DNA of 64,000 nt, taken from positions 268,000 to 331,999 of the forward strand of contig OZ242021.1 in NCBI GenBank assembly GCA_965204925.1, written 5' to 3'. The notes beneath the pieces were generated by a model. The model had not been told where the DNA came from and did no database searches. It saw nothing but the letters and a program-made list of their open reading frames with translations. The position numbers were made by a program, and so were the translations under genes. The stretch comes from Candidatus Poriferihabitaceae bacterium (GTDB lineage: Bacteria; Pseudomonadota; Gammaproteobacteria; Arenicellales; Poriferihabitantaceae). Numbering within the stretch: the first letter of the stretch is position 1; every line of letters starts with the position of its first letter. This document shows positions 4,149 to 18,814 of this stretch, piece by piece.

Positions 4149-8387
<4,239 letters not shown>

Positions 8388-15721: not shown

Positions 15722-16102
15722 CTATGCGCCTTTAACCCTCAGGATCATGTCGTAGATGCCATAGAACGAAAGCGCATCAAACGCCCACATGATCAACCCC
15801 AGAATAATCACGAGAATAATCACCATCAACGTCACCTGCAGGGCTTCCGGTCGGGTCGGCCATACCACTTTCTGGCACTCGATATTTGCTCCCTTGACAA
15901 AGGCCCAAGCGTCCTGCCCGATCGCTGTGGTCAATACCAGGGCGGCAGCCAATACCATTCCGGCAACGACCATGCCGATACGGCCCAGCTGCATGACATC
16001 GCTGAACTGATACCAGGCAACGACAGCGGCGAGAACGATCAGAATCGCTGCAACAATTTTAATTTTGTCAATCACTGCATTGGGTTTCCGATAATCGGTC
16101 AA
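15722..16102 (-). CDS. secE: Preprotein translocase subunit SecE
   Basis: The 126-aa protein has three hydrophobic helices and sits in the conserved position between tRNA-Trp and nusG. Confidence 0.85.
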   Translation of the reverse strand: MTDYRKPNAVIDKIKIVAAILIVLAAVVAWYQFSDVMQLGRIGMVVAGMVLAAALVLTTAIGQDAWAFVKGANIECQKVVWPTRPEALQVTLMVIILVIILGLIMWAFDALSFYGIYDMILRVKGA

Positions 16103-16121
16103 AAATTACGAGCAAGAACGA

Positions 16122-16197
<76 letters not shown>

Positions 16198-16283
16198 TCG
16201 AGCCGACTTGTTGAATAAACCAACCTCGCTAACAAACTGTTCACTATACAACCCCTCCCGATAACCCGTAACACTCCCGGCAG

Positions 16284-16359
<76 letters not shown>

Positions 16360-16414: not shown

Positions 16415-16489
16415 TGGAGCGGGTGATGGGAATCGAACCCACATCATCAGCTTGGAAGGCTGAGGTTCTGGCCATTGAACTACACCCGC
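16415..16489 (-). tRNA. tRNA-Gly (anticodon TCC)
   Basis: The reverse complement reads GCGGGTGTAGTTCAATGGCCAGAACCTCAGCCTTCCAAGCTGATGATGTGGGTTCGATTCCCATCACCCGCTCCA. Confidence 0.9.
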
Positions 16490-16551: not shown

Positions 16552-16636
16552 TGGTGGAGGGGGGAGGATTCGAACCTCCGAAGGCTGAGCCAACAGATTT
16601 ACAGTCTGCCCCCTTTGACCGCTCGGGAACCCCTCC
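16552..16636 (-). tRNA. tRNA-Tyr (anticodon GTA), long variable arm
   Basis: The reverse complement reads GGAGGGGTTCCCGAGCGGTCAAAGGGGGCAGACTGTAAATCTGTTGGCTCAGCCTTCGGAGGTTCGAATCCTCCCCCTCCACCA. Confidence 0.9.
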
Positions 16637-16741
16637 TGTAAAAATTCTGCACAAACGGTCAATTATCATGGTTTTTTTGATTCGTGTCAACTGAATTTTT
16701 CAGCCAGCCCCTATGGATTCACACCATTCGACGACCCGGAA

Positions 16742-17120
16742 TGGAGCCCGCAGAGGGATTCGAACCCACGACCTGCTGATTCTTACCCGCTACCGTTTTC
16801 AGGGCCGCCAGTTGTGCGCCTTGTCGATATGAGCGACACAACCCGCGTTTGGGGTCTGGACTTTCTCTTCACCTTATTTCCGGGCAACCGGAATACTTAG
16901 GCGGGTGGTGTAAAGTCTCTACACTCCAGTCCCGAAACCCTCTGTTCCGGGATGTAGCACGGGATTGCCATTTGAGCCCTTGCGACAGAATCGGCCATCG
17001 GCCAATCAGTCCGGGACCCAAACCGGGGTTTCCCCGTTTTAGCCACCTCCACTTCACAGGTTTCCCTGTGAAGGTGCAATTTTACAAATCAGCTGCTCTG
17101 GCCAACTGAGCTATGCGGGC
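16742..17120 (-). tRNA. tRNA-Thr (anticodon TGT), split by a 302-nt intron after anticodon position 36
   Basis: The 5' exon (17120-17084) is GCCCGCATAGCTCAGTTGGCCAGAGCAGCTGATTTGT. The 3' exon (16781-16742) is AATCAGCAGGTCGTGGGTTCGAATCCCTCTGCGGGCTCCA. Joined, they give a 77-nt cloverleaf with acceptor GCCCGCA/TGCGGGC, anticodon stem GCTGA/TCAGC and loop TT-TGT-AA, with one U-U mismatch in the T stem. Confidence 0.85.
16782..17083 (-). ncRNA. Group I intron (IC3-like, Azoarcus/Agrobacterium tRNA-intron type), no internal ORF
   Basis: The 5' exon ends in U and the intron ends in G (GGGTAAG|AATCAGC). An internal guide GCA pairs with the anticodon UGU to give a U-G wobble at the splice site. P2 is the hairpin CCTTCACAGG-GAAA-CCTGTGAAG. 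The core segment GGAGTGTAGAGACTTTACACCACCCGCCTAAG closely matches the Azoarcus intron segment GGTGTAGAGACTAGACGGCACCCACCTAAG as I recall it. GGTGG/CCACC can form P3. Confidence 0.8.
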
Positions 17121-17181: not shown

Positions 17182-17211
17182 ATTCTACGCAAAACCGGGC
17201 AATGAATGCAA
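17182..17211 (-). promoter_or_regulatory. Putative promoter of the tRNA (Thr-Tyr-Gly-Thr-Trp)-secE-nusG transcription unit
   Basis: The minus strand reads TTGCAT-N18-TAGAAT followed by a GC-rich discriminator (CGCGCTCC), as is typical of stable-RNA promoters. It lies about 60 nt upstream of the tRNA-Thr 5' end. Confidence 0.4.
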
Positions 17212-17294: not shown

Positions 17295-18029
17295 TCAAGT
17301 CCGGCAATTCACTTTGGTCAGCGCCACCCCGGGTTCATGCCAGTCATGTCCGGACAACTGCTCCTTCTGCATATCGGTCGAGGAGATTTCTATCCAGTTC
17401 AGTGGTCCGAGGCGGCGGTATTCCGGCTGAAACCTGGCTTCATAGCGGTTATTTTTCAGGTAATCAAGATATTTTTGCGCCAGCTCTTCCTGGCTGAACA
17501 CCCCCATCGAGATTCGGGTCAGGCCGTTATCCGTCCGGTACCGAAAATGCTCCAGCCCCCGCGATTCCAGTTCTTTCAGTATCGCATCAACGGACGATTC
17601 CGACGCGAACGGACCCAGGTAGACACGGAAAGCAAGCAACTGCCGACTGCCGCTGGTGACAGCCCTGAACTTGAATCCGCTGCCATCCATCCATCGTTTC
17701 GCGGCCTGCCAACTGTCTTCCTGCCTGAATGGACCCAGCCGATAACAGCCCGCGGCGACAGGCTGCCCGATACGGTCGTTAATCGGATTCGCAACGGCTG
17801 TCGCAGCCTCATCCGGCATCTGCGCAGACGCCGCTCCGCTTGCATCCGGTTGTCGGCTGAATACAGTGGCGGCCGACTGTGAAGCATCAACCTCGGCGAG
17901 TAGCAACATCCCCGTTTTATTCACATCGGACCGGGAATCAGACCTCACCGTATCAAGCGGAGTCTGCCGACTGCCCAACAGGTAAGCCGCCAGATTGATA
18001 ACGATCAGCGCGACCGCCAGCCACTTCAT
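17295..18029 (-). CDS. SPOR domain-containing membrane protein
   Basis: The 244-aa protein has an N-terminal TM helix (MKWLAVALIVINLAAYLL), a low-complexity linker and a C-terminal SPOR-like repeat region. It overlaps the coaX stop by 4 nt, as is typical of birA-coaX-SPOR clusters. Confidence 0.7.
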   Translation of the reverse strand: MKWLAVALIVINLAAYLLGSRQTPLDTVRSDSRSDVNKTGMLLLAEVDASQSAATVFSRQPDASGAASAQMPDEAATAVANPINDRIGQPVAAGCYRLGPFRQEDSWQAAKRWMDGSGFKFRAVTSGSRQLLAFRVYLGPFASESSVDAILKELESRGLEHFRYRTDNGLTRISMGVFSQEELAQKYLDYLKNNRYEARFQPEYRRLGPLNWIEISSTDMQKEQLSGHDWHEPGVALTKVNCRT

Positions 18030-18814
18030 TTCCGACCTTCCTCGACCAGGGCCAGCAACCCGATGAGTACCAGATCGGGGGCAACAAGGGTTTCATGGGG
18101 GGTTGCGGCAGCCAGCTGTTGCGCGTCCCCTCCTGTCAGAATGAGTTTCAAATCCGGCCCTGCCAGGTTTTTGTAATGTCTGATAGCGCCGTCCATGGCT
18201 GAAACGACAGCCAGCATCACTCCATTTTCCACCGCCTCCCGAGTCGTCCGGTTCTGCCAGGACAGACGCTCATTCATAGCGCTTGCGGTCGTTGACCGGA
18301 TCCGTCCGGTGCAGGAATTGAGGGAATATATCATGGACGCTATCCCCGGTAAAATAATCCCGCCGTCGAACACGCCCCGTGCGTCGACATAGTCAATGGT
18401 CACAGCCGTTCCGGCATCAATGACCACGACCGGCCGCTTGTTGTACAGCTCTTTTGCGCCGATCATGGCCAGCCAGCGATCGACTCCCAACTCTTGCGGT
18501 TTGTCATAACGATTGAGCAAGCATCTCCCCCGCCTGCCGGACTCCACAAAAGACGGCGAATGCCCCCAGAACGAATGGCAGGCGGCGCCCAGAATCCGAT
18601 TCACCCGCGCTTCGGCCACACTGCAAATCCAGATACCTTCAGGGGAAGCCATACCGCCGAATGCACTCTTCAGGGCTTTGCCCAAATCTGCCGCTCCACT
18701 TTCGATCGGTTCGTTTTTCAGCTCCTGTCGGGTAAACAGGCGCGGACGTGAACACAACTGCGAGGATGTTGCCCACTTGATTCTTTGATTACCGGCGTCA
18801 ATGAGCAATTTCAT
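18026..18814 (-). CDS. coaX: Type III pantothenate kinase
   Basis: The 262-aa ORF begins MKLLIDAGNQRIKW and contains IDAGTAVTIDYV, the ASKHA-fold motifs of CoaX. Confidence 0.88.
   Translation of the reverse strand: MKLLIDAGNQRIKWATSSQLCSRPRLFTRQELKNEPIESGAADLGKALKSAFGGMASPEGIWICSVAEARVNRILGAACHSFWGHSPSFVESGRRGRCLLNRYDKPQELGVDRWLAMIGAKELYNKRPVVVIDAGTAVTIDYVDARGVFDGGIILPGIASMIYSLNSCTGRIRSTTASAMNERLSWQNRTTREAVENGVMLAVVSAMDGAIRHYKNLAGPDLKLILTGGDAQQLAAATPHETLVAPDLVLIGLLALVEEGRK

Follow-up and report, generated by a model that had tools for sequence, protein, structure and literature searches.

A predicted IC3 group I intron at the anticodon of tRNA-Thr(UGU) in Arenicellales

Can a threonine tRNA gene whose anticodon loop is split by 302 nucleotides (nt) still give a working tRNA? 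The question is raised by a 64-kb stretch of DNA from a Candidatus Poriferihabitaceae bacterium (contig OZ242021.1, positions 268,000 to 331,999; hereafter the window), in which default ARAGORN and the Rfam tRNA model found no tRNA at 16742..17120. In intron mode, ARAGORN reported tRNA-Thr(tgt) at c[16742,17120], split by an intron of 302 nt, with the junction 'tttgt-Intron-aatca'. A first-pass annotation, made from the letters of the window, had proposed a tRNA-Thr(UGU) at 16742-17120 with a 302-nt insert between positions 36 and 37, and had suggested a tRNA scan with intron detection; that scan returned the same coordinates, length and site exactly. Judged by its sequence, the insert is a group I intron of subgroup IC3. 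We consider it very likely that this intron is functional, that it is spliced from tRNA-Thr(UGU) by the standard mechanism, and that it has been inherited mainly vertically and lost in some sister species.

Identification of the intron and its homologues

All tRNA genes, promoter-like sites and intron elements of the window described below lie on the reverse strand. The 5' exon (17084..17120; GCCCGCAUAGCUCAGUUGGCCAGAGCAGCUGAUUUGU) comprises nucleotides 1-36, that is, the acceptor strand, the D arm, the 5' half of the anticodon stem and the loop through the anticodon UGU. Its last base is U(-1), and it is the same as the 5' part of the uninterrupted allele found in two sister species (loci L114 and L116). 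The 3' exon (16742..16781; AAUCAGCAGGUCGUGGGUUCGAAUCCCUCUGCGGGCUCCA) runs from A37 through the 3' anticodon stem, variable loop, T arm and acceptor strand, and includes a discriminator U and an encoded CCA. The T stem has a conserved U50•U64 mismatch (GUGGG/CCCUC, 16750-16765) in alleles with and without the intron alike, and the tRNA exons were undecayed in every intron-bearing allele. The intron between them (16782..17083) begins with AAAAUUGCACC and ends with GGGUAAG. A protein-spliced bulge-helix-bulge tRNA intron, the archaeal and eukaryotic kind, was also considered and was rejected, given the site at 36/37 rather than 37/38, the length of 302 nt, the group I core and the bacterial host.

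The insert shows the hallmarks of group I introns: its 5' splice site has a U•G pair, its last base is G, and it has the helices P1–P9 and the P3/P7 pseudoknot. Its location in the anticodon loop, together with exons that join to a canonical tRNA, is that of IC3 tRNA introns. A 27-nt core pattern, GTAGAGACTNNNNNNCACCCNCCTAAG, was scanned across GTDB species representatives (one genome per species) and was found at 113 loci, nearly all of which, where the host was assignable, were tRNA anticodon loops. A covariance model (R1) built from 25 non-Thr introns (16 Ile(CAU), seven Leu and two Lys) matched the window intron over its full length (16774..17091) with 89.5 bits (E = 2.2e-23), which was the sole match in 64 kb. 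The Rfam model RF00028 (Intron_gpI) aligned over its full model length (1-253) with 29.4 bits (E = 1.6e-5; local search, 651 nt), and the window intron was 67-74% identical to the published seeds of Williams 2020 (10.1101/2020.01.27.920355). It should be noted that ARAGORN in intron mode misnamed the hosts at several loci ('Ser cga', 'Tyr gta', 'Arg acg', 'Gln ctg', and 'Thr tgt' for L107). Hosts were reassigned through guide/exon pairing and alignment, which gave Thr(UGU) for L011 and L092, Lys(UUU) for L107, Lys(CUU) for L028 and Ile(CAU) for L078; a brute-force splice-and-rescan procedure was too permissive for host calls.

Twenty further genomes had tRNA-Thr(UGU) interrupted at the same site by an R1-positive intron, with full-length alignment and scores of 87-141 bits across the set of 21 that includes the window. 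The carriers were Arenicellales metagenome-assembled genomes (MAGs), Ca. Spongiihabitans, Ca. Poriferihabitaceae, 'marine bacterium B5-7', unclassified Gammaproteobacteria and one alphaproteobacterial MAG (L077); Arenicellales and sponge-associated Gammaproteobacteria made up the majority of the 20. The genes for tRNA-Tyr, tRNA-Gly and tRNA-Thr(GGU) followed the intron-bearing gene in the 19 gammaproteobacterial loci. Two more Thr(UGU) intron copies were found in metagenome contigs (L151 and L190). The metagenome scan, which used the pattern GCTGATTTGTN{2,10}TTGCACC, was loose, with real introns in 2 of at least 120 loci, and is uninformative on abundance or on variants bearing an open reading frame (ORF).

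Two of the loci deserve separate mention. The sister intron in L115 (5283-5599) has an A-to-G change in the P7 5' strand (GAGGCU), by which the A-U pair beside the guanosine-binding site becomes G•U; this change put it beyond the reach of the exact-pattern genome scan. In L047 (1504-1761), a MAG labelled Parasphingorhabdus, the tRNA-Thr(UGU) exons are of the gammaproteobacterial type, and both the intron and the Thr-Tyr-Gly-Thr cluster are present; this contig is probably mis-binned.

Intron structure and covariation

With the intron numbered from 1 to 302 (window coordinate = 17084 − i), the internal guide U6-G7-C8-A9 (17075..17078) was read from the sequence and forms P1 through the wobble G7•U(-1) and the pairs C8-G(-2), A9-U(-3) and U6-A1, all of which were invariant among the Thr introns. 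A P10 pairing is possible between A4, U5 and U6 and the 3' exon AAU. P2 (17052..17073; intron 11-32) is a 9-bp hairpin, CUUCACAGG-GAAA-CCUGUGAAG, with pairs 11-19/24-32, and among the 21 Thr introns it had changes on both sides at 8 of 8 counted pairs. The 5' strand of P3, GGUGG (17043..17047; intron 37-41), was assigned by RNAalifold on alignment A2 and pair counts on alignment A3, and its partner CCACC (16904..16908; intron 176-180) by pair counts; the pair G41-C176 stands where Ile/Leu-type introns have U•G. P4, J4/5 and P5 occupy 16959..17037, with P4 at 47-52/120-125, J4/5 reading AAA, and P5 at 56-57/115-116 followed by an extension hairpin of ~57 nt (58-114). P4 and P5 were 100% paired in the 21 Thr introns, and the P5 extension folded as one long hairpin. 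P6 (126-128/159-161) and the P6a hairpin (133-140/146-153) lie at 16923..16958.

The 5' strand of P7 (16914..16919), G165-(A166 bulge)-G167-A168-C169-U170, contains the guanosine-binding G-C pair and has its partner at 16858..16862; the pseudoknot pairs of P7 were 100% paired in the 21 sequences. P8 (16872..16901) is a hairpin (183-212). Its CCUAAG / UAAGG motif, which Ile, Leu and Lys introns also have, differs at one base from the 11-nt GAAA-tetraloop receptor (CCUAAG/UAUGG). By analogy with the Azoarcus structure, this motif is likely the docking site of the P2 GAAA loop. J8/7 (UGAAGAGAA) and the P7 3' strand (AGUCC, 222-226), together at 16858..16871, were invariant in 21/21 Thr introns and are common to Leu, Lys and Met introns. 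The P9 domain (16785..16855) consists of an outer helix, ACCC(229-232)/GGGU(296-299), the variable hairpin P9a (237-278), which is the segment GUUGUGUCGC..GCGCACAAC pointed out in the first-pass annotation, and a GAAA-capped P9b (279-292). The outer helix covaried across hosts (ACCA/UGGU, CGCC/GGCG and ACCC/GGGU), and P9b had double changes at two pairs. The last intron nucleotide, the omega-G at position 302 (16782), was an invariant G in all aligned introns.

Six-frame translation revealed no endonuclease-size ORF in the intron, where open frames reached at most ~100 codons and helices fill most of the 302 nt. No homing endonuclease was identified, with an 86-amino-acid (aa) antisense ORF at 16849..17109 not compared with protein families. 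All 23 Thr(UGU) introns (23/23) were 214-313 nt long, too short for an endonuclease ORF. The U•G splice-site pair with guide GCA, the terminal G, the GAAA-capped P2 and the lack of a homing-endonuclease ORF had each been read from the window in the first-pass annotation, and each holds.

Standard pairs made up 92.6% of the cells over the 21 introns (P1, the P7 pseudoknot and the outer P9 helix included), compared with 37-42% with slid partners. Changes on both sides were seen at 14 pairs (41 cells), and 0 of 500 shuffles equalled that. P2, P9b and the P8 pair 297/358 varied freely yet remained paired, and in the eight closest introns the pairing of the P5 extension was kept via G-C/A-U and wobble changes, both compensatory and one-sided. 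Furthermore, the guide covaried with the last exon bases over six host classes, with exon CAU and guide GUG in Ile, CUU and GAG in Leu(UAA), ACU and GGU in Leu(CAA), CUUU and GAAG in Lys(UUU), CUCU and GGAG in Lys(CUU), and UGU and GCA in Thr. RNAalifold on the eight closest introns mispaired P3 and was therefore used for peripheral helices only; a pairing of exon GACU with the P7 3' strand on alignment A2 was removed as spurious.

Intron-less alleles, splicing and rival explanations

The window CoaX (18026..18814), for which an exact look-up gave no match, had 11 homologues at 63-76% identity, with the next tier at or below 43%, and eight of the 11 loci were compared. The order gcpE/birA-coaX-SPOR-tRNAs-secE-nusG was found in all eight. 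An intron of 286-313 nt was present in L115, L119, L120 and L121, and also in L040. An uninterrupted tRNA-Thr(UGU) occupied the syntenic site in L114, L116, L117 and L118, so the search for intron-less relatives suggested in the first-pass annotation yielded four sister species at the same locus. The uninterrupted allele was identical to the ligated exons of the window except for one T-loop base (GAGU versus GAAU), a match that locates the splice sites without recourse to a model of the intron. The intron-less locus L114 also has, between the SPOR gene and the tRNA cluster (5217-6335), a gene for a 372-aa protein with HTH_23/28/29 (transposase-like) domains.

In a neighbour-joining tree of CoaX, the deepest branches (L119, the window and L120) carried the intron and the intron-less species fell in two places. 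Intron divergence tracked coaX divergence (r = 0.73, 15 non-independent pairs). Ancestral presence of the intron with at least two precise losses, rather than gain, is the reading we prefer, although a single short protein supports it weakly. The Thr(UGU) intron of the alphaproteobacterial L077 has a different core type, and the 36/37 site of tRNA-Thr(UGU) was therefore probably colonised at least twice.

A putative promoter lies upstream of the interrupted gene at 17182..17211, with a -35 element TTGCAT (17211..17206), an 18-nt spacer, a -10 element TAGAAT (17187..17182) and a GC-rich discriminator CGCGC. This block was below the threshold of a consensus scan and was conserved in 10/10 aligned relatives, with or without the intron, and it presumably acts as the promoter of tRNA-Thr(UGU). 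A second promoter-like site, TTGACA-17-GATAAT (16662..16690), lies between tRNA-Thr(UGU) and tRNA-Tyr, matches the consensus at 11/12 positions and was also kept in 10/10 relatives, so the Thr-Tyr-Gly-Thr cluster probably forms two transcription units. Default ARAGORN and the Rfam tRNA model both found the downstream genes for tRNA-Tyr(GUA) (16552..16636), tRNA-Gly(UCC) (16415..16489), tRNA-Thr(GGU) (16284..16359) and tRNA-Trp(CCA) (16122..16197). The first-pass annotation had described a thrU-tyrU-glyT-thrT-type operon; the Thr-Tyr-Gly-Thr gene order stands, but with the conserved promoter in between the genes are probably not a single unit, and tuf does not follow. Whereas Escherichia coli has thrU-tyrU-glyT-thrT-tufB, the region after tRNA-Thr(GGU) in the window (15722-16359) has no tuf and continues with tRNA-Trp, secE, nusG, rplKAJL and rpoB instead. 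ACA made up 16 of 152 Thr codons, in rpoB (6), rplA (3), nusG (2) and others, and since ACA codons are in use, a tRNA-Thr with the anticodon UGU is needed.

The sequences themselves show the anatomy, the homology, the covariation, the allele match and the presence/absence pattern; the splicing chemistry, the transcription, the independence from proteins and the evolutionary direction (loss rather than gain) are what we infer. The tRNA-Thr(UGU) gene would be transcribed from its own conserved promoter, and the intron would fold with P1 between exon UGU and guide GCA, the P3-P8 and P4-P6 domains, the P3/P7 pseudoknot, and the P2 GAAA loop docked on the P8 receptor. A free guanosine bound in P7 would then attack after U36. 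G302 would next take the guanosine site, and the freed 3'-OH of U36 would attack after G302, joining U36 to A37 and yielding a 77-nt tRNA-Thr(UGU). Having no endonuclease gene, the intron would pass on mainly by vertical inheritance and be lost precisely in some sister species.

Several observations weigh against a functional, mainly vertically inherited intron of this kind. The Intron_gpI scan, which had been proposed as a check in the first-pass annotation, gave a full-length match, but its score was below the gathering score of 50, and no intron match was obtained at gathering. It should be noted that, as stated in Williams 2020 (10.1101/2020.01.27.920355), the Rfam seeds included none that were bacterial and cut-offs of 18-20 bits were used. 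The alignment of the 21 introns that underlies the pair counts was fitted to the model structure, so that the counts favour that structure. The window and the seven relatives nearest to it had a mismatch (C•C, U•U or U•C) at the third pair of P9b (16794-16802; intron 282/289; A3 columns 450/457), whereas this pair was Watson-Crick in the other 13 Thr introns. In addition, P5 is without the canonical tetraloop receptor of Azoarcus-type introns; its sequence is CCCCGG...AAAUGG for the window and CCUUAG... for relatives, compared with the canonical CCUAAG/UAUGG, while the P9b loop is GAAA. One tertiary contact may be weaker as a result, or the P5 extension may take its place. The mismatch, being fixed in the window's subclade, and the missing receptor for the P9 GAAA loop would both suit a true group I intron that cannot splice alone and requires a host RNA chaperone or a co-opted RNA-binding protein in vivo, for which the large P5 and P9a additions could serve as binding platforms. 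However, no core element is damaged, and J8/7, the guanosine-binding pair and the two GAAA loops are likewise preserved; compensatory changes maintain the peripheral helices, as would be the case for RNA-RNA stabilisers, and Azoarcus Ile2, a close relative of this intron class, self-splices robustly in vitro (PMC13168695). We therefore regard a protein requirement as improbable.

That the gene is a dead relic, with a splicing-incompetent intron and tRNA-Thr(UGU) supplied from another genomic copy, would agree with the low Rfam score and with the separate promoter of the downstream tRNAs, by which the gene could be lost without polar effects; moreover, the copy number of tRNA-Thr(UGU), a further weak point of the functional reading, is known from the 64-kb window alone. 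Such a relic is very improbable, since the exons are identical to functional intron-less alleles of species whose CoaX is only 63-76% identical, 21 genomes share an unvarying intron core with covarying helices, the promoter block has been maintained, and intron-less relatives keep tRNA-Thr(UGU) at the same locus. The preference for loss over gain comes from a neighbour-joining tree of one 262-aa protein, and the patchy occurrence among sister species could instead stem from introns gained horizontally in recent times, through reverse splicing or recombination with intron-bearing alleles from relatives or phages. The same intron family resides in at least six tRNA hosts with retargeted guides and in phage-like tRNA arrays (IMG/VR contigs), and the distinct core type of L077 implies at least two acquisitions of the Thr(UGU) site. 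However, intron identity follows host coaX identity in the window's family, the earliest-branching L119, window and L120 all bear the intron, homologous introns occupy the same operon in more distant Gammaproteobacteria (Ca. Spongiihabitans, Ca. Poriferihabitaceae and marine bacterium B5-7), and none of the phage copies (0) was in tRNA-Thr, which makes recent gain an unlikely explanation. An assembly artefact or chance resemblance can practically be dismissed; the assemblies are mostly metagenome-assembled, but the same structure was found at the same site in more than 20 independent assemblies and R1 gave E = 2e-23. A functional IC3 intron with standard splicing, mainly vertical descent and losses in some sisters thus remains the explanation we favour.

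A broader scenario, which we offer tentatively and hold to be doubtful, is that the endonuclease-less IC3 family, with the window intron as one fixed descendant, moves among tRNA anticodon loops via reverse splicing with a retargeted 3-4-nt guide, with phage tRNA arrays as vehicles from one bacterium to another. In that case the Thr(UGU) introns of Gammaproteobacteria, in which P5 and P9 are enlarged, would form an undescribed subclass long kept in sponge-associated Arenicellales, possibly because the ribozyme step helps to set the supply of tRNA-Thr(UGU).

The intron and its tRNA were missed not only by default ARAGORN and the Rfam tRNA model but also by Rfam at gathering. Under such standard annotation, genomes of this group would seem to be without tRNA-Thr(UGU), the only reader of ACA codons, with consequences for assessments of tRNA complement and completeness in marine and sponge-associated MAGs. 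The 21 orthologous introns and four precise intron-less alleles also form a natural series at one syntenic locus, which suits the study of gain, loss and structural drift in an endonuclease-less ribozyme.

Comparison with known tRNA introns

Our scans also met introns of this family in other hosts. Two viral contigs had tRNA arrays with two IC3 introns each, namely a 19-tRNA array in L123 (IMGVR_UViG_3300020047_009414, 4525-6125) and an array of at least eight tRNAs in L128 (IMGVR_UViG_3300045988_114742, 7102-8013), the intron hosts across both being a CAU-anticodon tRNA, a Leu(UAA)-like tRNA and a Lys-like tRNA. A 2014 review stated that introns were not known from any phage tRNA gene. In the cultured Sphingomonas sp. 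ID1715 (L107, 5749-5984), the locus that ARAGORN called Thr(tgt) is a tRNA-Lys(UUU) with an intron at 35/36 (CUUU|, guide GAAG), and this organism is culturable and one where a non-classical tRNA intron could be tested. At betaproteobacterial loci (L002, L008, L018, L021, L026, L030, L048, L100 and others), an uninterrupted CAU-anticodon tRNA gene (GGACTCATAATC...) often lay ~190 nt upstream of the intron-bearing tRNA-Ile(CAU). The 'introns' of 427 and 416 nt that ARAGORN reported in CAU tRNAs of L071 and L072 may be artefacts of tandem CAU tRNA genes or genuinely longer introns.

Reviews list tRNA-Leu(UAA), fMet, Arg(CCU) and Ile(CAU) as hosts of group I introns in cyanobacteria and alpha- and beta-proteobacteria, and the tRNAscan-SE 2.0 paper mentions introns in fMet and Ile2 and states that the design of the program did not cover the detection of group I introns. 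These classical bacterial IC3 introns likewise lie in anticodon loops, occur sporadically and have intron-less alleles in relatives, although their host tRNAs and phyla differ from those described here. Some fMet introns carry a homing endonuclease ORF, unlike the Thr(UGU) introns.

The closest well-studied counterpart is the pre-tRNA-Ile(CAU) intron of Azoarcus olearius BH72 (IC3; Williams class Ile2.5Ug), which is inserted at the same site, after anticodon base 36. It shares the helix order, the GAAA-capped P2, the CCUAAG receptor in P8, a GAAA-capped P9 hairpin and the absence of an ORF. The first-pass annotation had likened the core GUGUAGAGACU..CACCCGCCUAAG to that of Azoarcus, and rightly so, since 24 of 29 core positions (GUGUAGAGACU..CACCC.CCUAAG) are identical to Ile2 of the Williams 2020 supplement, with 69% identity over 199 aligned nt. 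However, the host tRNA differs, the guide is GCA rather than GUG, and the window intron is 302 nt long compared with 205 nt. The ~100 additional nt come from the long P5 extension, a longer P6a and P8, and P9a; they had been ascribed to extra 3' hairpins, to which P9a does belong, but about half is the P5 extension. Further differences from Azoarcus are a G-C pair in P3 in place of U•G, the lack of a sixth P3 pair, a P5 without the canonical 11-nt receptor, and a P9 built as a three-way junction of outer helix, P9a and P9b rather than as a single hairpin.

Leu and Lys introns, unlike the Ile(CAU) type, also have the three-way P9 domain. The IC3 introns of tRNA-Leu(UAA), Leu(CAA) and Lys(UUU/CUU) correspond to the Williams classes Leu.3Ug, Leu.2Ug and Lys.4Ug (L009, L045, L059, L007, L063, L107 and L028). 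They have the same 3' architecture as the window intron (ACCxCAAA..., a variable hairpin, a GNRA hairpin and GUAG.GGUA.G) and also the J8/7 segment GAAGAGAAAGUCC. They differ in their insertion sites (33/34, 34/35 and 35/36) and in P3 and J3/4, which read GGUGUC-AAAUU as opposed to GGUGGC-UAAAA in the gammaproteobacterial Thr introns.

Our literature queries naming tRNA-Thr or tRNADB-CE returned no relevant report, and the first-pass annotation had listed no tRNA-Thr among the well-studied bacterial hosts of group I introns. However, Williams 2020 (10.1101/2020.01.27.920355) reports 5292 mapped bacterial tRNA introns and an increase of host classes from 4 to 21, and its seed alignment includes Thr.5Ug, Thr.3Ug and Thr.2Ug (Rba53.Thr.5Ug, Mti5.Thr.3Ug and Pgr210.Thr.2Ug). 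The class Thr.5Ug has the same 36/37 position with U at -1 and omega-G, and the window intron (UUUGU|...G|AA) fits that definition. The printed Thr.5Ug representative has the exon GGU|A of tRNA-Thr(GGU), is 67% identical to the window intron and has other P3 and P7 sequences, which places it in a different intron lineage; the printed UGU representative, Thr.3Ug, is inserted at 34/35 instead of 36/37. Group I introns of tRNA-Thr, those at 36/37 included, are therefore not new, which weakens the earlier claim of novelty. Compared with the printed Williams representatives, the UGU lineage that occupies the thrU-type cluster of Arenicellales, and whose P5 and P9 are enlarged, appears to be new. 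The finding leaves existing knowledge of the working principle of such introns unchanged and adds to it a naturally occurring variant of the much-studied Azoarcus ribozyme that has additional P5 and P9 domains.

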